Of a DNA stretch of 64,000 nt, positions 607-20,456 are shown piece after piece. Under the pieces are notes generated by a model that was given only the letters and a program-made list of their open reading frames with translations, ran no database searches and was not told where the DNA came from. Both the position numbers and the translations under genes were made by a program. Position 1 is the first letter of the stretch. Every line of letters begins with the position of its first letter. Source of the DNA: a virus; the IMG/VR virus record IMGVR_UViG_3300023179_009086, positions 1 to 64,000 of that record; one strand, 5' to 3'.

Positions 607-1512
607 TTATCCTTCGCAGGCCAGGCATTCTGATCCATCTGCTAGTTGTTTTAGATCAATCTCTTCAATTATATTTCTTTCTATTTTTTGAGAAACTTTG
701 TCTGCTTTAATAATTTTTTCCGATCTGCAGTAATAAAGAGTTTTTAAACCTTTCTTCCATGCAGTAAAGTGTACCGCATGAAGATATTTAATTCCGGTAT
801 CGGGCTTGAAAAATACATTGACTGACTGCCCCTGATCAATGAACTGCTGTCTATCTGCCGCATGATCAATTACCCATCTTTGGTCAATTTCGATTGCTGT
901 CTTAAATACAGATTTTGTCCAATCATCAAAAATATCTAAACTTTGAATAGAGCCGCCACTTGAAATAATACTTGACCAAATATCTTGATAATCAAGTTTT
1001 GAGCTCTTAGAACACATATCTTTTATTATTTGATCTAGATACCTATTTTTATTCATATACGAACCTGACAGCGTATCCTGTCTGTAACAATTTGCTTTAA
1101 ACGGTTCTATAGAAGGCGAGGTATTTCCTAGAATAATTGAGGATGAGTTATGTGTCACCACCCCATTTTCAAGAACATAATCATGTGTCGTTGGAACTTC
1201 AATATCAAAAGTTGGCATAATTTCGCCTGTCGCCATCACAGATTCGACATACCAGCCATTTGTAAGCTCCATTCCTGAAATGAGCTCAACCACCTTAACC
1301 CAATCATGCTCTTTGGTTAGAAACTTATGATTTGCCGTACATCTTATAGAGAAGACGGACTCTCCCTTAATCATTATTAAATCAAGAACTTCCACATATC
1401 CGTTGAAATAAAATTTATTTACATCAGCAATCCCTTCCGATGTTTTTATAGAAATATTATTATCAGACTCAAACCATTGCGGCTGCTTCATCTTCACATT
1501 TTTAACTTTCAT
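607..1512 (-). CDS. nrdA: Ribonucleotide reductase class Ia alpha subunit, C-terminal fragment fused to a 122-aa C-intein
   Basis: After ...VVTHN the protein reads SSSIILGNTSPSIEP, QQFIDQGQSVN, GLKTLYYCRS (tyrosine pair) and a terminal CLACEG redox cysteine pair. Own AGGA SD 8 nt before the ATG. Confidence 0.93.
   Translation of the reverse strand: MKVKNVKMKQPQWFESDNNISIKTSEGIADVNKFYFNGYVEVLDLIMIKGESVFSIRCTANHKFLTKEHDWVKVVELISGMELTNGWYVESVMATGEIMPTFDIEVPTTHDYVLENGVVTHNSSSIILGNTSPSIEPFKANCYRQDTLSGSYMNKNRYLDQIIKDMCSKSSKLDYQDIWSSIISSGGSIQSLDIFDDWTKSVFKTAIEIDQRWVIDHAADRQQFIDQGQSVNVFFKPDTGIKYLHAVHFTAWKKGLKTLYYCRSEKIIKADKVSQKIERNIIEEIDLKQLADGSECLACEG
1147..1512 (-). mobile_element. C-terminal half of a split intein (122 aa) carrying blocks B, F and G
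   Basis: IRCTANHKFL (block B TxxH), TFDIEV (block F), NGVVTHN|S (block G, +1 Ser). Confidence 0.88.
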
Positions 1513-1536
1513 TGTTTATTTCCTAGTATTTTGCGT

Positions 1537-4500
1537 TTAATTTATTAATATAATTTCGTCATTTTCCATTAACTCTGATGCAATAATGGATATTTCTGAG
1601 CCATCCCTACTTACCTTTAGGCTTTGACCAATATGAATTTCTTTGGATGTGCCATCATCGAAGTCAACAGTAAGATACTCGAATGATTTCATGTCGACAC
1701 CAAGCTTGGCGCCTATATCGTCAAATGATATTGATTCTCCATCACTAGAAATAATCTTTGTATCAGAAGTTACGCAAGCATTTGGCGCAATCGCAAGGAT
1801 GTGACTAAATCTTTTTCCTGTTCCAACGGCATCGGGAGCTTCACCCCTTTCCTTTCCAAGCTCAAGGTCGGCAATATCTAATAAACCCCTAATTTGTTTA
1901 AACATTCTAATATTGGTTGATTTTGCCAAAGCACTTTCAAAAGGAATTCCTTTTTGCTGCAAATAAGCATGAAACCCAAGCGCCCCAATTCCTATAGACC
2001 TCTCTCTCATGGCGGAGAATTTAGCCCTTGATATTGACTCTGGAGCATTTTCAATAAAGTAAGTTAAAACATTGTCAAGCATTTCTGCAACATCTTTTAA
2101 GAAAAGAGGATCATCTTTCCACTGATCATATGTCTCTAGATTTAACGATGAAAGACAGCAAACCGCTGTTCTCTCATCTGATGTGGGAAGAATTATCTCC
2201 GAACAATTGTGTGTGATGACGCCATTACATACCCAGAGATGCTGGTCTGTATGAACTCCCACACAATAAACATCCTGTTTTCCCGCTGGTTCTATTTTTG
2301 TAATTTTTGAAGATTTTTCTGAATTATTTTCAAATTTATCGTTTGCAACATAAGGTGAGCCGACTATATGATTAATCTTGTAAATACTTGAATATTCGGA
2401 GATACAAACTGAGTTTGTATCGTCATCAATGTTTGATGTTACTCCAAGATTCGAAAGAATAAGTTGAAGGCTTGCAGCATCTTCTTTGAATGAGCAAATA
2501 CTTATTTTTGATACAAAGATATGCTTGTCAAAATCTATGGATGTAGATGATGACAAAATGATCTTGCTTATGTAAGAAATATGTGTTTGTTTATCTGAAT
2601 TCCAAAGCCAATTTGGAATCATCATGTTTTCTATTGAATGATTTTCTGAAAAGTACTCTCTTACTTTTTCTATATTATTCTGCGTTCCAAATACGCCCTC
2701 ATGTGACTGAATAAATATATCATCTCCGATGTTCAATTCTGAAAGTGCAATCGCTTCAACTTTTCCGTTCTTCTTTGCCAGAATCTTATGATACCCAGTG
2801 ACAGTATGAGTCATGCCATTGTCGAGAGTAACTTTGAATGTCTCTGCATTTCTCTCAATTAGATTCATCTTCGTGGACTTTACAGGGCCATCATTTGATG
2901 CAAGAATAAGATCCTCTCCAAGATCATAAAGCTCTTTTGCAGTCAACATTCCAAAATTAGTTGGGACTCTCTGATCTCCTGAGACGCAGAGATTACTCTG
3001 TCGAACTTGTAGGCCTTTACTTTTTAGAAAATCTGGGAGAAAGCGATTTGATGTATCGATAAAGTGAATGTATGGCTCTCCTGTCTGCATTCTCAGCTCT
3101 AAAATCTTTTGCCACAATTCTTTCGCAGACACAACCTCCTTCACCTGACCGGTGTGTGGCTCTTTTAGTTCCCATGAGTCATCAACATTAGGATCTATCA
3201 TAGATCTCTCAATAATCTTCATAAAACTATCAGATATATTTATTCCATGGTGGAGATTTAGACATCTCATGTTTTGATCGCCTGTTGGCTTTCTCATTTC
3301 AAGAAATATAGGAACGTCAGGATGAGAAATATCCAGATAAGCGGCGTAAGATCCTCTCCGTGTATTTCCGCAAACAATTGGCGTTTCTCCCGCTCTAACT
3401 ACAATCTTTCCGGTCCGGACCACACAACAATGGACCATTCCTTCATACTGAATATGTTCTTTTCTTAACTTTTCAAGAAGGAAGTAATTCTTACTCCCAA
3501 CAAAAACTGTATACATATCTTGCCTTGGCTTGTCTCTTTTTCTATGAAAGATTCTGCTCTGTCGGCCAGCAATTACAGAAAGCGCCTGAACAATCGATGC
3601 GTTTTCTTTTATAGTGCTAAAGTAAATAAAACTATGCTGCCTGTTTCTTGTTGCATCCCATTCCGCAATTTCTTCAAGCATGGCGGAGGCATCCTCTTGG
3701 GTAATTCTTGACAAATCAATCCAAGAGAGACTCTTTAGCCCATCAAAATTCATACCTTTAGCATAAACGCTAACAGTGCCGTCTAAATTGTTAGCCTGCC
3801 ATGTTTCCAAATCTAGATTTGATAGAATTTCTGTTATTCTTGAAATCTTTCTTTCTTTTTTTAGATGGAATTCACATACGCCGTCCGCCCTAATATGAGC
3901 ATCTGCCTGTATTGCAATTTTCAGGCGAGTAAGTGCATCTAGTTTGGATTGTGATCTAGACTTCTTTGCTGCGTTCCAGAACCTAACTTCATTATGAAAC
4001 TTCAATTCTGATGCACGAACCTTCTCTAGTTTTTTTGACCAGCCAGATTTAACTTTTCTCTCAACAACCATAGAGTGATCTTCCGTTACTGAAATTTCTA
4101 TTCCTCTAGTTTTGTTATAGAATTTGATTATATTCCCATTATATTTTTCAGATACTATTTCTAGTGGTTTTTCAAAACAGATTCCTCCATCATCATCGAT
4201 CACTGCAACATCGTCATTTTTAGTCAGTAGCTCCATAGGCTTCCAGCCTGAAGATGTCAGTATTTCTGTTCCGGGAACATAGCAATTCCCTTGTTTGAAA
4301 GCCAGGGATGAAGCATCATAAATCTTTAGGTGTGGCATAACACCAGTAGATTTGTCACCAGCCGACCTAATCCCAAAACCCAAACCAACGCCGCCGCCAA
4401 GCATTGATAACCAGTTTGTCTCAGAAAGAGTGTCTACCAGACCCTTGGCTGTATCAGGAATCCATGATAGAAAACAACTAATTGGTAAACCATACTTAGT

Positions 4501-4734
4501 TCTACCAAAGGACAGAATTGGGGTGGAATAGCTCAACCAATGCTTGCTAGCATAATCATAGAGTCTCTGGGCATGATCTTGATTTGAGGAGAATTGCTTT
4601 GAAACAAAAGCAAACCTCTGCTGTGGTGAGGTTTCTTCATCTCTCATGTATGATTCTTTTAACCTTTTTAGGCCTAACTCATCAAATAAAGAGTCTCTAC
4701 TATAATCTACATTAATTCCAAGATAACTAGACAT
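1537..4734 (-). CDS. nrdA: Ribonucleotide reductase class Ia alpha subunit, N-terminal fragment with two cis inteins and an N-intein
   Basis: STPILS, LPISCFL, GGGVG, QGN|TRRG, TGEPYI, SNL|CSEI, AVCCLSSLNL, ERSIGIGALG, AIAPNA. No ATP cone. The exteins sum to about 597 aa with the downstream fragment. Confidence 0.93.
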   Translation of the reverse strand: MSSYLGINVDYSRDSLFDELGLKRLKESYMRDEETSPQQRFAFVSKQFSSNQDHAQRLYDYASKHWLSYSTPILSFGRTKYGLPISCFLSWIPDTAKGLVDTLSETNWLSMLGGGVGLGFGIRSAGDKSTGVMPHLKIYDASSLAFKQGNCYVPGTEILTSSGWKPMELLTKNDDVAVIDDDGGICFEKPLEIVSEKYNGNIIKFYNKTRGIEISVTEDHSMVVERKVKSGWSKKLEKVRASELKFHNEVRFWNAAKKSRSQSKLDALTRLKIAIQADAHIRADGVCEFHLKKERKISRITEILSNLDLETWQANNLDGTVSVYAKGMNFDGLKSLSWIDLSRITQEDASAMLEEIAEWDATRNRQHSFIYFSTIKENASIVQALSVIAGRQSRIFHRKRDKPRQDMYTVFVGSKNYFLLEKLRKEHIQYEGMVHCCVVRTGKIVVRAGETPIVCGNTRRGSYAAYLDISHPDVPIFLEMRKPTGDQNMRCLNLHHGINISDSFMKIIERSMIDPNVDDSWELKEPHTGQVKEVVSAKELWQKILELRMQTGEPYIHFIDTSNRFLPDFLKSKGLQVRQSNLCVSGDQRVPTNFGMLTAKELYDLGEDLILASNDGPVKSTKMNLIERNAETFKVTLDNGMTHTVTGYHKILAKKNGKVEAIALSELNIGDDIFIQSHEGVFGTQNNIEKVREYFSENHSIENMMIPNWLWNSDKQTHISYISKIILSSSTSIDFDKHIFVSKISICSFKEDAASLQLILSNLGVTSNIDDDTNSVCISEYSSIYKINHIVGSPYVANDKFENNSEKSSKITKIEPAGKQDVYCVGVHTDQHLWVCNGVITHNCSEIILPTSDERTAVCCLSSLNLETYDQWKDDPLFLKDVAEMLDNVLTYFIENAPESISRAKFSAMRERSIGIGALGFHAYLQQKGIPFESALAKSTNIRMFKQIRGLLDIADLELGKERGEAPDAVGTGKRFSHILAIAPNACVTSDTKIISSDGESISFDDIGAKLGVDMKSFEYLTVDFDDGTSKEIHIGQSLKVSRDGSEISIIASELMENDEIILIN
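1540..1776 (-). mobile_element. N-terminal half of a split intein (79 aa)
   Basis: Starts CVTSDTKIISSDG (block A) right after APNA and ends at the TAA. No TxxH and no terminal HN. Confidence 0.85.
2206..2988 (-). mobile_element. Cis intein (261 aa) inserted at the thiyl-radical Cys of NrdA; endonuclease region probably degenerate
   Basis: SNL|CVSGDQRV ... TVTGYHKI ... DVYCV ... NGVITHN|CSEI. The central region has only remnant LAGLIDADG-like segments (IPNWLWNS, LQLILSNLGV). Confidence 0.9.
3364..4284 (-). mobile_element. Cis intein (307 aa) with a LAGLIDADG-like endonuclease domain
   Basis: QGN|CYVPGTEILT ... VTEDHSM ... IAIQADAH ... EIAEWDAT ... PIVCGN|TRRG. Penultimate residue is Gly, +1 is Thr. 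Confidence 0.9.
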
Positions 4735-4751: not shown

Positions 4752-5291
4752 TTATGATTCTAATTCTGGATTATACTGTTCCGATATTTGTCCATCTTTC
4801 CAAATTCTAACTAAATTTGTTTCTTCAGAAAGTGTAAATACTGATATAACATCTTTTCTCATTGAAAATGAGGCTGCGCTTATATGTCTAGTTCCACATC
4901 CATCTGGAACATCCAAAATTGGATTATCTACTGTTAGATAAATCTTACTACCTAATATTTGTCCATCTCTATTGATAACTATAGATCCATCATTGTTCTC
5001 TTTTATAAGAGAATGAAATTCTTTTTCAAAGGAACTAATGGAAATATTTAAATATTTTTGAATTGGATTTAATCCAATTTGCCTCATTCCTGGCACAATA
5101 TGATCTCGGTAAAAATCAAAATTACCAAAAACTATTAGGCAGCCAATATTGGCTGCTGTTTTATGAGAGGAATTTGAAATCTCAATTAAAGAATTATAGA
5201 TCTTCTTTTCTACTTTTTGAAACTCTCTTGCAGAGTTAAATTGAAAAGAAAAATCTACAGATGATACCTTCTGTAAATCTTCTGTAGTCAT
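4752..5291 (-). CDS. Stand-alone diadenylate cyclase (DAC/DisA_N) domain protein
   Basis: IGCLIVFG, NDGSIVINRDGQI (DGA-like motif), GCGTRHISAA (RHR-like motif), LSEET..VRIWKDG. No TM segment or regulatory domain. Confidence 0.8.
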   Translation of the reverse strand: MTTEDLQKVSSVDFSFQFNSAREFQKVEKKIYNSLIEISNSSHKTAANIGCLIVFGNFDFYRDHIVPGMRQIGLNPIQKYLNISISSFEKEFHSLIKENNDGSIVINRDGQILGSKIYLTVDNPILDVPDGCGTRHISAASFSMRKDVISVFTLSEETNLVRIWKDGQISEQYNPELES

Positions 5292-5299
5292 TTGTTATC

Positions 5300-6682
5300 C
5301 TATCCGCTAAATCCATCCTCATCATAAGTAAGATGAACTTCTTCATTTTTAGCATTTATAGTCTGAATATTAATTGGATTTTTCCATATTTCATAAATAT
5401 ATTCACATACTTTTTCTATATGTTTGATATCCAAAGTTCCAATATGGGTACTTTCATGTTTTAATTGTAAAAATCCATCTTCCACACCGACGATGCTAAC
5501 CAGGGGTGCTCGATAGTCATAGAGATTTTTAACCAGGGACTCTGCAACATCATCTACATCAGTAGATACGACCTCTACTATTTCATCAAAATTATTTTTA
5601 TAATGTTTATAAGTAAACAACTCAAGTTCTTGTACTAATTCTTTAGTTAGATATCCTTTTACAAAAGAAATATCATCCTCTTCCTCTACTACTTCAAAAA
5701 CTTTTTGAAGTCCATTTATATTAGATTCTCCTTTTTGATATTTTTCATCCCATCTTTTTTTAATATCATTAAAAATAGAAAAACCCAAAAAATATGGATT
5801 AATATTTAATTTATTAGATCCAGGTTGAACTACTCTTTCATGTACTTTACAAAATTCTAAATGTTCTGATTGAGAAGTTAAATCAGTTTCATACATTAAA
5901 TCTGCATGGCAAAAACTTGCAAATCCTTCATTCATAATTTTTGTCATATATTGTGGATAAAAATAATAAGATTCTTCTCTAATTATTTCTAAAACATCTT
6001 TTTTCCATGATTCTAAATCTTTAGAATAATTTACCAAAAACCAAATAAGATCATATTCAGGATGTGGTGGAAAAGTGTCATTTAAAACATGCATTTTTTT
6101 AGAAGTAGCTGGAAGTCCGTGCATATCCGCAAATTCTCCATTGGAGATTTCTTTTATAAGAGTTCTTTTTTTTGGATATGGTTTTCTATGAATTCCTTTG
6201 TGCCAATCAATATGTTTATCTATTGCAAATCCTATATCCATTACTCTTTCTACTTCTTTTAAGCCATAATGAGCAATATACTCCTCTATTCTCTGAGCTC
6301 TTTCTGCAGCATGATAAACCATTTTATTATCTGTTTGTTTAAACAAAAAATTATTTTTAAAAAAATGAACATGTCCAAAAACATGGGCAGCTACCATTAG
6401 ATTAACAATATCTGAATTTGTATCTAATAAAAAAGCATAAGAAGGATCATTATTTAAAACTACTTCATAAATTTTTGAGTGTCCCATTTCTCCTTGCATT
6501 TTTTGATAATCATAAGATTGCCCATAAGACCAATGTCTAGCTCTAGTAGGTAATCCATAACTAACTACTTCTAACATTACTTCATTAGGAACTATTTCAA
6601 AATTAACTGGATAAAAGTTTAGTCCAAAATTTTTAGCCAATTTTTCCATTTCAACAATTTTTTCTGTTAATGTTTTAGACAT
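5300..6682 (-). CDS. spoVR: SpoVR/YcgB family protein
   Basis: GLPTRARHWSYG, IYEVVLNNDP, AHVFGHVHFFKNN, YFYPQYMTKIMNEGFASFCH, INPYFLGF. Start moved to the ATG at 6682 (GGA SD). Confidence 0.92.
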   Translation of the reverse strand: MSKTLTEKIVEMEKLAKNFGLNFYPVNFEIVPNEVMLEVVSYGLPTRARHWSYGQSYDYQKMQGEMGHSKIYEVVLNNDPSYAFLLDTNSDIVNLMVAAHVFGHVHFFKNNFLFKQTDNKMVYHAAERAQRIEEYIAHYGLKEVERVMDIGFAIDKHIDWHKGIHRKPYPKKRTLIKEISNGEFADMHGLPATSKKMHVLNDTFPPHPEYDLIWFLVNYSKDLESWKKDVLEIIREESYYFYPQYMTKIMNEGFASFCHADLMYETDLTSQSEHLEFCKVHERVVQPGSNKLNINPYFLGFSIFNDIKKRWDEKYQKGESNINGLQKVFEVVEEEDDISFVKGYLTKELVQELELFTYKHYKNNFDEIVEVVSTDVDDVAESLVKNLYDYRAPLVSIVGVEDGFLQLKHESTHIGTLDIKHIEKVCEYIYEIWKNPINIQTINAKNEEVHLTYDEDGFSG

Positions 6683-7871
6683 TTTTATCCTTTTTTGCAA
6701 TACCATCTATATTAAAAAACATTTTTAATGCATCAAAGACTTCATCTTTAGAATTTACTTTCATAGTTACAAATCTTGTTCTTTTAATTTTTTTCTTTAA
6801 AATATCATGAAGAGTATCATAACCAGATTTATTCCATTGAATTTCTCTATCATTAGGGGCTATCTCTCCGTACCCTATGGCAGTACATAGTGGCAATAAT
6901 TTTTCAATATATTTAATACAAAGATTATTGTCTTCTCCCCAATTATCACCATCAGAGAATTCAAAAACATAATTATTCCAATATTCAACAGGGTGATGAT
7001 TTTGTATATGTTCGTACGCTAATTTAAAAGCAGTACTACAATTTGTACCACCAGAGCTTGAGATTTTAAAAAATTCTTTTTCCTCTACAATAAAAGCTTT
7101 AGAATCGTGAGCTATAAAAACAAAATCTATTTTTTTATATCTTCTTTTTAAAAATTGAACCATCCAAAAATAAAAACTTTTGGCAATATAAGTTTTTTCG
7201 TTATTCATGGATCCACTTCGATCCATCATAATATATACTGCAGCATTAGAATGATATTCTCTAACAATATCATAATTTTTATATCTTAAATCATCTTGAT
7301 TAAAGTTTGCAATTTTGGCTTCACCTTTTGCAGCATTTCTTTTTAGATTTTGAAGAATAGTTTTTTTCAAATCTAAGTTAGGCATAATGCCTTTTTTATC
7401 AATTGATGCAAATTCTTCATTTTCAATTTCAATAACAGAAGTTTGTTTTGGCTCCATCCATGGAAGGTTGAGTTCTTCCAACATAATGTCTACCAATTCA
7501 TCTATTGTAACGTCTGCATCAAAAGTTCTTTCACCTTCTTTATTTCCAGCTCCATCTCCGCTGGATTCTTCTGGCTGGCCACTTTTTATTTTAAATTTAT
7601 CACCCTTACCAGCTTTAACACCCTGACCGGTAGCATCTTGAGAATTCAATTTGCCATATTTGATTTTATATTGATCAAGAAATCTGATGGGAACTTTAAT
7701 TTTTTTATCCCCATCGGATGTAATGATATTATATTCGGTAATAAGATCTTTGCCATTTTTACGAATGGCATCTTTTACCAACTCTTTATGTCTATCTGAG
7801 TCTCTCTTACCTCTTCTTTTTAGCTTCCAGATATCAGAGAGATTCTCAGAGGATTTGGAAGTAGAGCTCAT
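6675..7871 (-). CDS. yeaH: YeaH/YhbH (DUF444) vWA-domain protein
   Basis: DSDRHKELVKDAI, EELNLP, DDLRYK, MIDAS DRSGSM, SSGGT, FSDGDNW. Lies between prkA and spoVR. Confidence 0.9.
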   Translation of the reverse strand: MSSTSKSSENLSDIWKLKRRGKRDSDRHKELVKDAIRKNGKDLITEYNIITSDGDKKIKVPIRFLDQYKIKYGKLNSQDATGQGVKAGKGDKFKIKSGQPEESSGDGAGNKEGERTFDADVTIDELVDIMLEELNLPWMEPKQTSVIEIENEEFASIDKKGIMPNLDLKKTILQNLKRNAAKGEAKIANFNQDDLRYKNYDIVREYHSNAAVYIMMDRSGSMNNEKTYIAKSFYFWMVQFLKRRYKKIDFVFIAHDSKAFIVEEKEFFKISSSGGTNCSTAFKLAYEHIQNHHPVEYWNNYVFEFSDGDNWGEDNNLCIKYIEKLLPLCTAIGYGEIAPNDREIQWNKSGYDTLHDILKKKIKRTRFVTMKVNSKDEVFDALKMFFNIDGIAKKDKNV

Positions 7872-9781
7872 TAGTTTCTAGCCATTAATGAACTAACATA
7901 TCTTAGTAATTTGTTAGCAGACTCTGCTGTATATCCATGTTTTTCACATAGAGTATTAATAACTACATTAATTCTTTTAAGCTCTTCCTCATCTGGATTT
8001 CTAGTGCTTACAGTCAATCTGATGACATCTTGTCTTTCATCAAAGAGTTGCTTCTCTAAAGCTTCCTTTAGTTTTGGATGATCTTTGTAATTATAAGAAC
8101 CATTACTACTTTTGGCGCTTCTAAGCATTTTTCTATAGATTTCTTGTCTAAATGACTTTTTACCGCTCTCAGTAATTCCAACTTTTTCTTCAATGGATCT
8201 CATAAGTCTTTCATTTGGATCTTTTAAATTACCCCACTCATCTTCAATTTTAGTTCCATCTAGGAAAGCTCCAACATGATCCATATAATTATTGAGAAGA
8301 TTCTGAAGCTCTTCTTCAAAATTAACAAAGAAAGCTTTTTGAACTTCGCTCTTAGCAAGTTTTGAGTATTCTTCAATAACAGATGTCATAATATTTTCAA
8401 GTCTTTCAATTTCTTTAGAATCAAGTTTTGGATTAGTTTTAAATCCATCTCTAATAGATCTAATTACATCAATAGGAGTAATGCAAGTTGCACCTTCTTG
8501 TGCTAAAGTAGAAGAAATTCTATTAACAATATATCTAGGTGAAATTCCAGACATGCCTTCTGTATCAAATTCTTTCTTTAGAAGAGCAACATCTCCATGG
8601 GAAAAACCTTCGACTTCGTCACCATTATAGAGCCTCATTTTATTAATTGGTGTTGCCGCAGAGTTTTTGGACTCTTTAAGTCTTGATAGAATTGAGAACA
8701 TTGCTGCACAATAAAGTGTATATGGAGCAATATGTACTGATTTAAGATCTGAATTTTTAACTAATTTTTCATAAATCTTAACTTCATCGCTTACATTGAG
8801 ATTATAAGGAACTTTTACAACAATAATTCTATCATGTAAAGCTTCCATTTCTTCTTTTGCTAGAAATCTTTTATATTCGGTCTCATTGCTATGAGCAAGC
8901 AAAAATTCATCAGCATAGATGAGTGGAAATCTTCCAGTTTTAATATTCTTTTCTTGAGCAAGAGTTAATAAAACATAAAGAAATTTTTGATCTACCTTTA
9001 GCATTTCTACGAACTCCATCATGCCTCTGTTGGCTATATTGAGTTCTCCATCAAATCTAAAAGCTCTAGGGTCTGACTCCGATCCATACTCTCCAATCTT
9101 ACTCAAATCCATAGATCCTACTAGCTCGGAAATATCTTGACTCTTTTTATCTGAAGGAACAAAAGTTCCTATTCCAACTCTAGATTGCTCAGAGAAAATA
9201 ACTCTTTTAACTGGTAGATCTAAAAAGTTTCCATTGTACTGTTCTTTTAACACTAAATCCATAAGTGGACTTAACTGTCCTTCTATTTTAATTCCATAAT
9301 TTTCTAGCAAAGATTTTCTCAGATCATTTGGAATAGCCCAAAGTGGATCCTCATGCATAGGAGACTCGGAAAGAGCATAAATGGCACCCTCTGGAGTTTT
9401 TGAAAACTCCTCCATGCCTCTTTTTAACATAATAGCCAATTGTGACTTACCAGAAGAAGTTGGTCCGTATAGTAAAAGTATTCTTCTTGAAACCTCAGAG
9501 CCAGCCGCAGCAGCCCTTAAATAAGACATAATTTGCTCAATGGAATCTTCTGCTCCAAAGATTTCATTAGCAAAAAAATTATATTTAGTAATTTGTCCAG
9601 ATTCGCCTCTCTCCACTCCGGCATGCTCAATCATCTTTAAAACTCTAGAATGAGAGCTTATATTTAAGGCTGGATTCTCTATTACCATTTCCAAATAGTC
9701 TTTTAAGGTACCAGACCAAGAAAGTTCATTAGTTTTCTTGATATGCTTTGTCATTTCTTGGATAAGTTTGGCTGACTTCAT
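7871..9781 (-). CDS. prkA: PrkA/YeaG family AAA+ ATPase (annotated serine kinase family)
   Basis: RILLLYGPTSSGKS (Walker A), SPMHEDPL, SQDISELVG, SESDPRAF.FDGELNIANRGMMEFVEMLK, EALHDRI, GMSGISPR. TAATG coupling to yeaH. Confidence 0.93.
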   Translation of the reverse strand: MKSAKLIQEMTKHIKKTNELSWSGTLKDYLEMVIENPALNISSHSRVLKMIEHAGVERGESGQITKYNFFANEIFGAEDSIEQIMSYLRAAAAGSEVSRRILLLYGPTSSGKSQLAIMLKRGMEEFSKTPEGAIYALSESPMHEDPLWAIPNDLRKSLLENYGIKIEGQLSPLMDLVLKEQYNGNFLDLPVKRVIFSEQSRVGIGTFVPSDKKSQDISELVGSMDLSKIGEYGSESDPRAFRFDGELNIANRGMMEFVEMLKVDQKFLYVLLTLAQEKNIKTGRFPLIYADEFLLAHSNETEYKRFLAKEEMEALHDRIIVVKVPYNLNVSDEVKIYEKLVKNSDLKSVHIAPYTLYCAAMFSILSRLKESKNSAATPINKMRLYNGDEVEGFSHGDVALLKKEFDTEGMSGISPRYIVNRISSTLAQEGATCITPIDVIRSIRDGFKTNPKLDSKEIERLENIMTSVIEEYSKLAKSEVQKAFFVNFEEELQNLLNNYMDHVGAFLDGTKIEDEWGNLKDPNERLMRSIEEKVGITESGKKSFRQEIYRKMLRSAKSSNGSYNYKDHPKLKEALEKQLFDERQDVIRLTVSTRNPDEEELKRINVVINTLCEKHGYTAESANKLLRYVSSLMARN

Positions 9782-15248: not shown

Positions 15249-16607
15249 CTAGCGTTTTCTCCTCATATCAATGAGGGAATTTTGAGAACTTCCTGTAACT
15301 TGAAGTCTATTAAAACCAGAATTTTTTCTTTGAATTTTTTTATGAATCTCACTAGCAACATTAGCTACTGCATCATCTTCAAGTGACATACTCATAGCCT
15401 TTACTCTATCTTTTTCTTTTTGAGAAGAAACTGCAGATTGAGCTTTACTTTCTTCTTTTAAAGTTTCTATTCTAGATTTAGGGAGTCCTAATCCAGCAAA
15501 CCAGCTATAGATTTTAACAGAATCTGTTTCAGATTCAACATCATAAATACCCTGAAATATAAAGGCGCCCTTTGTTTGTTCAGAAATCATATGAAAACAA
15601 TAATTAATATTAATGGCTGGAAGTTTATCTAAAACTTCTTTAGAACCAGTAATAATAACTCCACCCACCCTTGTTTGAGTTAAATCAAAACCTTCAGCTA
15701 GCATGTTAGAATTTAAACTATCAATAACTGATTCAGCTAGGGCGGTCTCATTCATATAATCTTCAACTTCAATGACACCATAAACAGAACAATCTCCTGC
15801 AGAAACAATCTTCCCGAAATCACTTGGATCCAGAGAAGTAAATCTTGATGGTCTAGAAGTTAAATGGTTAAAGACATCAATAGGTTCAACGATAGCTCTA
15901 TTGGAGGCCTCCCAGAATTTAGCCTGGGATAGATTTGCATAAATAGCCTCTATTCTAGCATTATCAACAACAACTAAAGAAGCAATAACATTGGCCGAGG
16001 AAAGTTTGGCTAACTTAGAAAGAGTTTCAAGGGAATTCTTTTTAGACTGAGAATCCTCTGTAGCTTTTGGCAATACATAAATAACTCCAACCGGAGTTCC
16101 AAACTCATATAACATAGGTACCATAGTTTCAACAGAGGAAGATCCAGTTCCTCCGCCACCAGAAACAGCTAGGTAAACCATATTATTGCCTTCAATAATT
16201 TTTCTAGAGAATTCTGTAATCTCATCCAGAGATGAAGCAAAAATCTCTCGACCCAATTCAAGATCTTTTCCGGTTCCGCCAAGAGTTCCGGTTAACAGAA
16301 GTTTGTTATGGGGAAGCACATCAATATATTCAAGATCTTGAGAAGAAGTGTTTATAACTCCAGCATCATAACCTAGCTTGTGAAAAACTTCGGCAATTCT
16401 AGAACCAGCCTGGCCGACACCTATTACGGCCATTTCAATAGCCACACTTCTTTTAGCAACGACTTTTGGCACTTCTTCCTCCACTTTCTTTTCTAATCTT
16501 CCTCTAAGTTTTTGTAAAGTAGCAGCATCTAAAGCAGATTTATTTAATGCAGATGTTAACTTATCATTTTCTTCTTTTATTTCTTCTTTTGTTTTATTTT
16601 GTTCCAT
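15249..16607 (-). CDS. Tubulin/FtsZ superfamily GTPase (PhuZ/TubZ/CetZ-like)
   Basis: IGVGQAGSRIA, INTS, GGTGKD, signature GGGGTGS, VVVDNA, LDPSDF. Start moved to 16607 (GAGGA SD). Confidence 0.88.
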   Translation of the reverse strand: MEQNKTKEEIKEENDKLTSALNKSALDAATLQKLRGRLEKKVEEEVPKVVAKRSVAIEMAVIGVGQAGSRIAEVFHKLGYDAGVINTSSQDLEYIDVLPHNKLLLTGTLGGTGKDLELGREIFASSLDEITEFSRKIIEGNNMVYLAVSGGGGTGSSSVETMVPMLYEFGTPVGVIYVLPKATEDSQSKKNSLETLSKLAKLSSANVIASLVVVDNARIEAIYANLSQAKFWEASNRAIVEPIDVFNHLTSRPSRFTSLDPSDFGKIVSAGDCSVYGVIEVEDYMNETALAESVIDSLNSNMLAEGFDLTQTRVGGVIITGSKEVLDKLPAININYCFHMISEQTKGAFIFQGIYDVESETDSVKIYSWFAGLGLPKSRIETLKEESKAQSAVSSQKEKDRVKAMSMSLEDDAVANVASEIHKKIQRKNSGFNRLQVTGSSQNSLIDMRRKR

Positions 16608-17547
16608 AAAAATCCTCACAATATTTATTGATTTGTTCTGCAATTGCAGATGGTTCTATAACTGCAAACGGAATTAAAGAATCAGACTGATTATACCCAG
16701 AAACTCTACATAAGTAGTTTGAATGCTCTTTCATCGGCTCAACATTAGAGGTAATAATATCACATCCAATTTTTTTAGCTTCAAAAAAACACATACCAAG
16801 ACCCTCCCTAGTTGAGGGGGCAATAATACAATCTGCTTCAGCATATGCATCATGAATTTCTTGCCTAGAAATTTTTTGACCAATAAAAGTTATTCTTTTA
16901 TCTTTTACTTCCATATTTTTGAGTCCAGAAATAATTAATCTAACTTTTTGAAAAGAAACTAATGAAAAAGAGTTAATAACAGCAGGTGTATTTTTTTGAT
17001 TAATTTCAGAATTAGATCCAGGATGATAAAAAGTTATTATATCTTTTTTTTCTTTTTTTATCTTGGAAAAATTAGGACAAAAATCCCAAGTTATTTTTTT
17101 TGCATTTGAAAAATTTTTAAATAGAAAAAATGTTTGATCTGTTAAACAATATACTTCAGAAAATTTTTTATATTTATTTTGATAAAGATCAGTTTTCATT
17201 GACCATTCGGGCATAGGAATGTCTATTACCTGCACTCCTATCTTAGAAATAGCCTCTACCCAATGAGAATCTTTTATAAAAGTTTCAAACGAAAATATTT
17301 TTTTAATATTATATTTTTTAATATAAGAAATAAGTTGTAAACTATAAGAAATATCACTATTAAATAATAAAAAATTATTCATTTCACTTTTAAAGTGTCC
17401 GGTCCATTTATTATTAACATAAATAAAACTTTTCTTAGGAATCATAAAAACTTGATTTCCTAATTGTTCTTGATAAATTTTAAAAGATTCAGCAAGATAA
17501 TATAAACCAGAAATAAATGGATATGTAATTACACCAATATTTTCCAT
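16594..17547 (-). CDS. GT-B (GT4-like) glycosyltransferase
   Basis: ADCIIAPSTREGLGMCFFEA (E-x7-E motif). Confidence 0.8.
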   Translation of the reverse strand: MENIGVITYPFISGLYYLAESFKIYQEQLGNQVFMIPKKSFIYVNNKWTGHFKSEMNNFLLFNSDISYSLQLISYIKKYNIKKIFSFETFIKDSHWVEAISKIGVQVIDIPMPEWSMKTDLYQNKYKKFSEVYCLTDQTFFLFKNFSNAKKITWDFCPNFSKIKKEKKDIITFYHPGSNSEINQKNTPAVINSFSLVSFQKVRLIISGLKNMEVKDKRITFIGQKISRQEIHDAYAEADCIIAPSTREGLGMCFFEAKKIGCDIITSNVEPMKEHSNYLCRVSGYNQSDSLIPFAVIEPSAIAEQINKYCEDFYGTK

Positions 17548-19143: not shown

Positions 19144-19507
19144 CTTCTAATCTAACAACATCATCTAAATGATCAGTTGATGTTTCTATAATTTTAACGT
19201 CTTCATTTTCTGCATAAAAACGATGAATTAAATTAGCTTCTATATGAAATGAAGAACCTTCTATTAAATGATAATAATTTTCTATATTATTTTTTAATAT
19301 CATTAAAGTTAATGAACCAGAATCTATATAAATAGTTTCTTCTTTAATTTTATGAAATTGTTTGGATGTTTTATGTCCTTTTTTTATAAAAAGAATTTTA
19401 GAAACATATCCGGCTTCTTTACTATGCGCCCAAATAATCTCATAACCCCAAGGTTTTTCTATTTTTATTGTATTAAAATGTTGTTCAGGATAATGATGAT
19501 AAATCAT
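19124..19507 (-). CDS. Cupin, mannose-6-phosphate isomerase (type II C-terminal)-like
   Basis: EKPWG, SKQFHKIKEET, IHRF, DDVVRLEDEYGR. Confidence 0.78.
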   Translation of the reverse strand: MIYHHYPEQHFNTIKIEKPWGYEIIWAHSKEAGYVSKILFIKKGHKTSKQFHKIKEETIYIDSGSLTLMILKNNIENYYHLIEGSSFHIEANLIHRFYAENEDVKIIETSTDHLDDVVRLEDEYGRC

Positions 19508-20456
19508 GTAGATACATCTCTTCTAATAACATTTTCCAATTATATTCTGGTTTCCAACCTAATTTTTTTCTAGCTTTTTCAGCATTTCCAAGTAGATAAG
19601 AGACGTCTGATGGTCTCATAAATTTTTGATCTTGTTCATAAACATCTTCAAATTTTAAATCTGCAATAGTACAAACGTATTTTAACATTTCTTCTATTGT
19701 AGCTCCGGCTCCGGTGGCTATGATAAAATCATCAGGCTCTTCTTGCTGAAGCATTAAGTGCATCGCTTTACAATAATCCTTGGCATGACCTTCATCTCTG
19801 AAAGCATTTAAATTTCCCATTTTTATTTTTTGTTCTTTTCCTACTTTTATTTTTGCAATACCACTAGTAATTTTTCTAGTGGCAAAATCAAAACCCCTTC
19901 TAGGAGAGCTGTGATTGTGAAGAATACCATTACAAGCAAATAAATTATAAGACTTTCTATAATTAATTACTGACCAGTAAGCTGCTAATTTTGAAATAGC
20001 ATAAGGTGACATAGGATTCATTATATTTGTTTCTATAAAACCATTTTCAGGACAAATAGATGATCCAAATAACTCTGAAGTAGAAGCTTGATAGTATCTT
20101 GTATATGGAGAAATATTTCTAATTAATTCTAATTGATTAATTACCGCTTCTCCATTAATACGAAAAGAATATGTTGGTTCTATAAAAGACTGACCTACAT
20201 GAGACATTGCTGCAAGATTATACCACTCATGTGGTTTGTAATGATGCAAAATTCTGCAAATAAAAGTAGAATCAGTAATATCACCAATTAATAATTTAAA
20301 ATTATTATTATCAATAATTTGATTTAAATTATCTAATTCGTTTTTTGTACTTATTCTTCTAGTAATTCCTATAACTTTATAACCTAAAGATATAAGATGT
20401 TCTGATAAATAAGATCCATCTTGTCCGGCAACACCAGTTATTACTGCTATTAACAT
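19485..20456 (-). CDS. gmd: GDP-mannose 4,6-dehydratase
   Basis: ITGVAGQDGSYL, YNLAAMSHV, YQASTSELFG, SPYAISK, SPRRG.DFATRKIT, GNLNAFRD.GHAKDY. Confidence 0.92.
   Translation of the reverse strand: MLIAVITGVAGQDGSYLSEHLISLGYKVIGITRRISTKNELDNLNQIIDNNNFKLLIGDITDSTFICRILHHYKPHEWYNLAAMSHVGQSFIEPTYSFRINGEAVINQLELIRNISPYTRYYQASTSELFGSSICPENGFIETNIMNPMSPYAISKLAAYWSVINYRKSYNLFACNGILHNHSSPRRGFDFATRKITSGIAKIKVGKEQKIKMGNLNAFRDEGHAKDYCKAMHLMLQQEEPDDFIIATGAGATIEEMLKYVCTIADLKFEDVYEQDQKFMRPSDVSYLLGNAEKARKKLGWKPEYNWKMLLEEMYLHDLSSLS

Follow-up and report, generated by a model that had tools for sequence, protein, structure and literature searches.

A stand-alone DAC-domain gene conserved in a lineage of aquatic jumbo myophages

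Many bacteria and archaea use cyclic di-AMP (c-di-AMP), an essential second messenger, to control potassium, osmolytes and the cell envelope. Cyclic nucleotides are known targets of viruses, which destroy or sponge them. Signals of the c-di-AMP type were recently shown to act in anti-phage immunity. The diadenylate cyclase (DAC) domain occurs in several cellular settings. CdaA/DacA has a three-helix membrane anchor and cdaR/glmM neighbors, while DisA, a protein of about 350 aa, joins the domain to a helical spine/linker and an HhH DNA-binding domain. CdaS is a cellular, sporulation-specific and sigma-G-controlled enzyme with an RHR motif (B. cereus structure 2fb5). The soluble DacZ/CdaZ-type cyclases carry a DACZ_N, DacZ_P or PK_C sensor domain, and DacZ of the archaeon Haloferax volcanii is an example of the DacZ class (PMC6741144). 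The DacZ and CdaZ classes, whose activity has been shown by experiment, have the architectures DACZ_N-DAC and PK_C-DAC. Finally, PanS of the Panoptoo system is a bacterial lone DAC domain of about 150 aa with DGF/GGR motifs; this minimal DAC is active and constitutive, is paired with the S2TM-beta effector PanE in a two-gene operon of a bacterial defense island, and makes 3'3'-c-di-AMP or cUA, the latter allowed by an extended lid (bioRxiv 10.64898/2026.08.10.743927).

Here, we describe a DAC-domain gene carried by a phage. The window analyzed is a stretch of 64,000 nucleotides, part of a 76.6-kb IMG/VR virus record (IMGVR_UViG_3300023179_009086) that is estimated to be 23% complete. An earlier note, made from the letters alone, had proposed that a 179-aa open reading frame at positions 4752-5291 encodes a minimal viral DAC with neither a membrane anchor nor a sensor domain, and had given no strand. 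The frame is real and lies on the minus strand, with an ATG start (P0001). An AGGA is found ~10 nt upstream of the start, and the gene is separated by 8 nt from the stop of spoVR and by 17 nt from the start of nrdA. DAC (PF02457) is the sole Pfam family in the protein (E 2.5e-12; 46.9 bits for a gathering cut-off of 27; residues 46-168). The match spans profile positions 9-118 of 119, with the same outcome in four complete relatives. About 45 residues precede the DAC core, and the match stops 11 residues before the C-terminus, with no second Pfam domain. No membrane segment was detected in the protein (the top 19-residue Kyte-Doolittle mean is 0.83), and a DACZ_N, DacZ_P or DacZ_A sensor domain gave no Pfam match at E<=1. 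The product is thus a minimal, soluble, virus-encoded DAC-domain protein without anchor or sensor, as had been proposed. A promoter scan stayed at chance level, promoter and terminator scans gave no site between spoVR, the DAC gene and nrdA, and an Rfam search of the window returned nothing. One metatranscriptome run contained an identical contig of 193 nt inside the gene (4902-5094), which is a hint only, as the library may contain DNA.

We built an AlphaFold2 model of the protein on a 54-sequence alignment. The model is confident (pLDDT 91.1, pTM 0.84) and its alpha/beta fold matches solved DAC structures, at a low level of sequence similarity (18-25% identity, phmmer E about 1e-3, family-profile E 5e-5). 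The earlier note had made its reading depend on a DisA_N profile or structural match, and both the profile and the fold matches are clear. A search of 90% clusters gave 166 homologues at E<=1e-3, the best 120 of the 166 all at E<=4e-58. The number of homologues and the confident DAC fold confirm that the observation is far above chance. Judged by its sequences, the family is a distant clade of the DAC superfamily. A predicted complex of two copies with ATP and Mg scored a median of 0.37 for a mark of 0.42, which counts neither for nor against self-association.

The DGS and GTRHISAA motifs of the protein read as the earlier note had described them (D101-G102-S103 and G133-A140), and a further motif that it omitted, S155-E156-E157-T158, is present as well. 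D101-G102-S103 (4983-4991, minus strand), read directly, is the equivalent of DGA with Ser for Ala, and aligns to the HDG of CdaA/DacA. G133-T134-R135-H136-I137 (4881-4895, minus strand) aligns to the GTRHR of CdaA/DacA, with Ile for the second Arg. S155-T158 (4818-4829, minus strand) aligns to the VSEETG of E. faecium CdaA and S. aureus DacA, and is thereby the equivalent of the phosphate-/metal-binding strand SEET(G) of CdaA. Y118-L119 (4935-4940, minus strand) aligns to the YL(P) of CdaA/DacA that lines the adenine pocket of CdaA. We take the position of Y118 to match the adenine-pocket tyrosine Y187 of L. monocytogenes CdaA, the residue changed in the Y187A mutant of PDB entry 6hvn.

These residues are strongly conserved. 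In alignment A1, which holds 29 family members down to 54% identity, D101, G102, Y118, L119, T134, R135, H136, I137, S155, E156 and E157 are all invariant. C132/G133, I137 and S138 are invariants specific to the family around the active site. The D, G, R, H and S are still invariant in a wider set of 54 sequences (21-49% identity), and D101 and G102 are so in all three alignments (A1, A2 and A3). Conservation extends to an N-terminal motif, D13-F-S-F-Q-F18 (5238-5255, minus strand), located immediately before the region of the model alignable to solved DACs, which starts at residue ~18-22. In A1, D13 and Q17 of this motif are invariant and F14, S15, F16 and F18 are at least 90% conserved; the wider family retains [VI]DF..Q. 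Nei-Gojobori estimates on the DAC genes of related loci gave dN values of 0.11-0.33; synonymous sites were saturated in most pairs, for which dS was not estimable, and dN/dS was 0.07-0.18 where dS could be computed. The gene is under strong purifying selection. The identity of the related DACs to that of the window (57-61%) falls within the range of DnaB, DnaC and SpoVR in the same loci.

The earlier note had taken DGS and RHI as variant motifs of an unusual or degenerate active site, a view that the family does not bear out. DGS, a conservative change, is restricted to P0001-P0011, the 11 nearest relatives (at least 69% identity), and the remaining family has DGA. The Ile that follows R-H is family-wide, being found in 118 of 118 members with a readable motif. 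Beyond the family, only 6 of the 124 nearest 50%-cluster representatives with G-x-R-H have Arg at this position, the others including I (26), L (21), A (18), M (11) and V (11). The position reads I, R, K, L, M or V across diverged stand-alone sister clades that keep the rest of the site. It is also non-Arg in DACZ_N-DAC and PK_C-DAC proteins, which read GARHISA, GARHTAA and GARHVAA. In Leptospira CdaA, the equivalent Asp and first Arg are each essential, and Ser222 of CdaA contacts the beta and gamma phosphates (PMC12974146). M. tuberculosis DisA is killed by RHR>AAA (PMC3328451). The mutants in these two studies cover the Asp, the first Arg, a Ser and the RHR>AAA triple, the second Arg never being changed alone (PMC12974146; PMC3328451). 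Activity, including synthesis of 3'3'-cUA, has been shown for minimal DACs whose motifs are DGF and GGR (bioRxiv 10.64898/2026.08.10.743927). Given this variation across the family and the DacZ/CdaZ classes, together with the activity of DGF/GGR DACs, the motif changes are no ground for expecting an inactive or exotic enzyme, and they point to a putative DacZ-like core.

By sequence comparison, the closest cellular relatives of the phage protein appear to be the DacZ/CdaZ-type cyclases. Among its nearest multi-domain relatives, P0156 (DACZ_N + DAC) shares G-x-R-H-I-S-A with the phage protein and matches it at 37% identity over 125 residues. Structural neighbors in the ESM Atlas are mostly clusters bearing DacZ_P or DacZ_A, whose taxon labels (Archaea, Uroviricota) are contig labels and not hosts. 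Like DacZ/CdaZ, the phage protein is soluble and has a residue other than Arg at the second arginine position of RHR. It differs in being virus-encoded, in keeping S-E-E where P0156 has S-E-T, and in having, instead of a sensor domain, the ~45 N-terminal residues with DFSFQF. The other classes are further away. The phage protein has neither the anchor nor the cdaR/glmM neighbors of CdaA/DacA, lacks both additional domains of DisA, shares 18-25% identity with CdaA/DacA/DisA with Ile for their second Arg, and is 18% identical to CdaS. PanS, which we compared by description and not by sequence, resembles it in being a lone DAC domain; unlike PanS, the phage protein has no effector or transmembrane beta-rich neighbor (spoVR and nrdA are found instead), keeps T-R-H and has a lid of canonical length.

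We then asked which phages carry this gene. The large ORFs of the window all lie on one strand and encode a baseplate J protein, a sheath initiator, very large structural proteins and a tubulin homologue, as well as UvsW-, DnaB- and DnaC-like proteins, glycosyltransferases and an intein-laden ribonucleotide reductase (RNR). DAC-bearing relatives include records of 317, 332, 335 (direct terminal repeats, 100% complete) and 395 kb with one DAC each, a single DAC per genome being found in four relatives that are 94-100% complete; a metagenome contig of 468 kb also carries the gene. The phages marked by the DAC gene are a lineage of jumbo myophages, about 320-400 kb in size (up to 468 kb), that occurs in both freshwater and seawater. 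Near-identical copies of the window's own phage are present in lake and freshwater metagenomes of several studies, and a clade of ~60%-identical DACs is largely oceanic (Tara labels). P0125, a TPR protein with half a DAC, was left out as an apparently chimeric or truncated call.

So far, the family is known only from viruses. No cellular copy turned up when one genome per GTDB species was scanned with family patterns, although a scan of this kind is no proof of absence. Among GenBank phages, tblastn of the DAC against 50,697 records and megablast of 12 kb against the phage records gave no match. PHROGs returned a chance-level match only and has no family for the protein, BFVD holds no viral structure matching the fold at E<=0.001, and scans of viral contigs with the single proteins P0124, P0127 and P0132 found nothing. 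The searched open literature contained no description of a phage-encoded DAC. For Gmd, an 85%-identical match lies on a contig assigned to a freshwater Actinomycetota MAG; the contig may itself be phage, and the family DAC was not found in that MAG. Altogether, the phage protein is a well-conserved member of the DAC superfamily that forms a new, so far virus-only clade in a new setting.

This setting is a conserved stretch of minus-strand genes, ordered dnaC, dnaB, small ORFs, a zinc-ribbon gene, prkA, yeaH, spoVR, DAC and nrdA. Directly upstream of the DAC gene, in marine and freshwater loci alike, is a SpoVR/YcgB-family gene (5300-6706, minus strand; Pfam SpoVR, E 1.3e-109). It is preceded by a gene for a vWA-like YeaH/YhbH protein (6675-7871, minus strand; DUF444, E 5.2e-86) and by one for PrkA/YeaG, which combines an AAA+ and a PrkA C-terminal domain (7871-9781, minus strand; AAA_PrkA, E 1.1e-121; PrkA, E 8.8e-72). 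Directly downstream is the gene for the intein-bearing RNR large subunit (1537-4734, minus strand; Pfam Ribonuc_red_lgC/lgN, Intein_splicing and Hint). The prkA-yeaH-spoVR-DAC block is retained in 17 of the 17 IMG/VR loci with enough flanking sequence. It is also present in a deeply diverged non-marine clade, with 43-47%-identical DACs, the motif RHK and 56-58%-identical PrkA proteins. In this RHK clade, spoVR and the DAC gene are separated by a 54-aa ORF and a YpsA/SLOG-like gene, and a sigma-70-like gene overlaps the DAC stop (an arrangement seen in locus L034). A 38%-identical DAC in another locus, L046, has no spoVR within 1.1 kb upstream.

The same three-gene stress module is found in other large phages, including Ralstonia phage RsoM2USA, the huge phages LR7565xx and Thermus phages. 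A search from the SpoVR side added nine related viral records that have the module but lack a DAC, both within 10 kb and in the rest of the record. In one of them (L064) a cupin gene fills the DAC slot although its RNR is 82% identical to that of the window, and in another (L056) the slot holds a YpsA/SLOG gene and a sigma factor. The two records searched among the phages above, the isolated phage RsoM2USA and the 642-kb metagenome-assembled LR756502, differ from the window's phage in having no DAC anywhere in the genome. The existence of module-only sister phages shows that the DAC is an accessory gene in a variable slot between the PrkA module and the RNR, and not an obligate fourth subunit of PrkA-YeaH-SpoVR.

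Our preferred reading, to which we give a probability of roughly 55%, is that the phage protein is an active, sensor-less, DacZ-like cyclase that makes 3'3'-c-di-AMP during the replication phase. We infer this activity, and with it the product, the timing and the targets, from sequence, model and gene order. The bare DAC domain with its short conserved N-terminal helix would be competent for diadenylate cyclase catalysis. Two domains would, by analogy with solved DACs, meet face to face, each binding ATP with Mg or Mn through D101-G102, T134-R135-H136, S155 and E157, with Y118-L119 at the adenine, and the pair would condense two ATP into 3'3'-c-di-AMP and two pyrophosphates. The gene is read in a minus-strand run with dnaC-dnaB, prkA-yeaH-spoVR and nrdA, so production of the protein probably coincides with phage replication. 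Host c-di-AMP receptors would then be the targets of the cyclic dinucleotide, which would in this way act on K+/osmolyte transport and on cell-envelope or stress circuits, and perhaps also on the phage's own PrkA stress module. That the enzyme is unregulated, as the earlier note had it, is unproven, given the conserved N-terminal extension with DFSFQF and the fixed place behind the PrkA module.

Several points stand against this preferred reading. The sequence similarity to solved DACs is low and the second Arg of RHR is missing. Searches of the complete relatives for a c-di-AMP riboswitch (RF00379), a PstA/DarA receptor (PF06153) or an RCK_C domain came back empty, and sister phages with the PrkA module dispense with the DAC. 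If the host had no c-di-AMP receptors, the product would be left without an obvious target.

A possible partner for turnover is encoded elsewhere in these genomes. Enzymes of DHH-DHHA1 architecture (NrnA, Pde2, DhhP, CnpB) cleave pApA, c-di-AMP or nanoRNA. Among DAC-bearing genomes, each of the five with a completeness of at least 66% encodes one small stand-alone DHH-DHHA1 protein of 276-294 aa, far from the DAC gene; in L074, where the neighbor was scanned, its gene adjoins that of adenylosuccinate synthetase. An orthologue is absent from three DAC-less relatives (75-84% complete), and two others have only a fragment scoring 18-19 bits. As a lead from sequence, the DHH-DHHA1 protein and the DAC are a candidate synthase-hydrolase pair, in which the former may turn the cyclic dinucleotide over. 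Nucleotide salvage may explain the co-occurrence equally well, and the DAC-bearing genomes are related and not phylogenetically independent.

An active cyclase could also serve counter-defense, its dinucleotide keeping guard systems silent as the phage removes immune nucleotides of the host, or jamming CBASS-like cyclic-nucleotide receptors, a possibility that we rate as unlikely. In Panoptes, with 2'3'-c-di-AMP, and in Panoptoo, a constitutive signal of the c-di-AMP type is the antidote that restrains a lethal effector, and the effectors fire when it disappears (PMC12657230; bioRxiv 10.64898/2026.08.10.743927). Phage sponges and phosphodiesterases trigger both Panoptes and Panoptoo (PMC12657230; bioRxiv 10.64898/2026.08.10.743927), and PanS is, like the phage protein, a lone DAC domain with non-canonical motifs. 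The DAC gene is moreover accessory and patchy among sister phages, as anti-defense genes often are. On the other hand, it sits in a conserved block of replication and nucleotide-metabolism genes rather than in a variable anti-defense island, and it is highly conserved over deep divergence, unlike fast-evolving anti-defense genes. PADLOC gave no match to the protein, with a library from 2023 that predates Panoptoo. One version of this idea, which we find quite improbable, is that the phage enzyme mimics the host's antidote signal and so silences guards of the Panoptes/Panoptoo type at the time when host immune nucleotides are destroyed or sequestered by the phage, and that it may reprogram the host through a private DAC and DHH-DHHA1 pair. 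If true, it would make this protein the first cyclic-dinucleotide synthase from a virus to be turned against nucleotide-based immunity instead of serving it.

Another version of an active cyclase would make a different product, for instance a mixed or linear dinucleotide, as PanS makes 3'3'-cUA. DAC domains can do so through a remodeled lid loop, with cUA-making PanS running from D71 to R108 (bioRxiv 10.64898/2026.08.10.743927), and the phage family is very distant from characterized DACs, with its own invariants at C132/G133, I137 and S138. However, the segment from DG to RH is of canonical length and has no extended PanS lid, and the Y-L pair of the adenine pocket is invariant. The distance of 34 residues from D101 to R135, with one single-residue gap relative to CdaA, argues for the canonical product over an asymmetric one of the PanS type. 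We regard a product other than c-di-AMP as distinctly unlikely.

The gene order raises a further alternative, in which the DAC would be a dedicated part of a four-part PrkA-YeaH-SpoVR machine, regulated by or signaling to the module through direct binding. The order PrkA-DUF444-SpoVR-DAC holds in every DAC locus with enough flank (the 17 IMG/VR loci and the 43-47% clade), the gap to spoVR is 8 nt, and DFSFQF is conserved ahead of the DAC-aligning part. Yet all loci come from one phage lineage and are collinear from dnaC to nrdA, and the adjacency is for this reason weak evidence of coupling. The module occurs without a DAC in the nine related records, slot variants L064 and L056 included, and in RsoM2USA and LR756502; two genes split spoVR from the DAC in the RHK clade, and L046 has its DAC without spoVR within 1.1 kb upstream. 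We see a slim chance for this arrangement.

Very improbable, finally, is a non-catalytic DAC that binds c-di-AMP or ATP as a sponge or poisons host DAC oligomers, as the earlier note had also suggested: the second Arg of RHR is lost, there is no regulatory domain and the fold can hold product, since DisA crystals contain co-purified c-di-AMP (entry 3c1y), but such a protein would need no Asp, Thr-Arg-His or Ser-Glu-Glu, all of which are invariant under strong purifying selection, so that the conserved metal- and phosphate-binding residues fit these readings poorly, and heteromers with host DACs of about 20% identity are unlikely.

The phage family suggests that the textbook RHR motif is no requirement of the DAC superfamily. 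A virus making a cyclic nucleotide is not described in GenBank phages, PHROGs, BFVD or the searched open literature, and the interest of the locus lies in a virus encoding a putative cyclic-dinucleotide synthase at all, as well as in the ease of testing it: genes of the family abound in lake and ocean metagenomes, are strongly conserved and should be easy to express at this small size. The product of the DAC may act in host takeover, through potassium, osmolyte and envelope circuits if the host uses c-di-AMP, in cross-talk with the PrkA module, or in counter-defense. The finding raises the question of whether large aquatic phages manipulate host signaling by synthesis.

A candidate partner for the stand-alone DAC-domain protein, the predicted c-di-AMP synthase, is carried elsewhere in these genomes. 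Each of the five DAC-bearing genomes with a completeness of at least 66% (relatives G001-G004 and G015) encodes a small stand-alone DHH-DHHA1 protein of 276-294 aa, and no orthologue was found in three DAC-less relatives that are 75-84% complete. In the corresponding loci (L073-L076 and L078), the gene lies at L073:955-1824 (minus strand), L074:1459-2289 (plus strand) and L075:1411-2295 (plus strand), and is also present in L076 and L078. In L074, the neighborhood that was scanned, it is adjoined by an adenylosuccinate synthetase gene. The DHH-DHHA1 protein may be a c-di-AMP/pApA phosphodiesterase acting as partner of the DAC, or it may serve plain nucleotide salvage.

The DAC protein itself carries an N-terminal motif, D-F-S-F-Q-F (5238-5255, minus strand), that is near-invariant across the family, discernible in the diverged sister clades, and located immediately before the portion over which the model can be aligned to solved DAC structures. 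The motif could serve in docking or regulation. In the non-marine sister clade, whose DAC is 43-47% identical, the gene order 3' of spoVR is a YpsA/SLOG-like gene, the DAC and a sigma-70-like gene (L034:7445-9286). The first, at 25.8 bits, scores slightly below the cut-off for Pfam YpsA. The last, with regions 2 and 4, overlaps the stop of the DAC gene. At L056:11459-12645, the SLOG and sigma genes are present without a DAC.

The neighboring genes spoVR and prkA are interrupted by intein-sized insertions in several relatives, as seen in enlarged spoVR ORFs of 828-884 aa (L002, L004, L006, L011, L016 and L038) and an enlarged prkA ORF of 1009 aa (L002:3228-6257). SpoVR (468 aa) and PrkA (636 aa) of the window show no interruption. 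Inteins usually reside in indispensable phage genes. The large RNR subunit of the window is split over two ORFs (607-4734, minus strand) with Hint and intein-splicing domains, and its orthologue in L064, a locus with a cupin gene in place of the DAC, is 82% identical and also intein-bearing.

Near-identical copies of the window's phage (4500-10100, mostly at least 99% identity) were found in lake and freshwater metagenomes from several studies, while the ~60%-identical relatives with a DGA motif carry Tara Oceans labels. Identical contigs within the DAC gene (4902-5094) and yeaH (7390-7627) from one metatranscriptome library weakly hint at transcription.

A tubulin/FtsZ-family gene (15249-16643, minus strand; Pfam Tubulin, 47.7 bits) closes a glycosyltransferase run in this phage, whose contractile-tail module is conventional. 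The phage GDP-mannose 4,6-dehydratase (19485-20456, minus strand; L026) shares 85% identity with a gene on a 16.5-kb contig of a freshwater Actinomycetota MAG bin and 68% with one in a Pacearchaeota MAG. Either these contigs come from phage and were mis-binned, or the matches hint at the donor or host. Several jumbo-phage records of 158-332 kb (G003, G006, G007 and G008) are labeled "provirus" in IMG/VR; genuine host flanks, if such records have them, would name the host.
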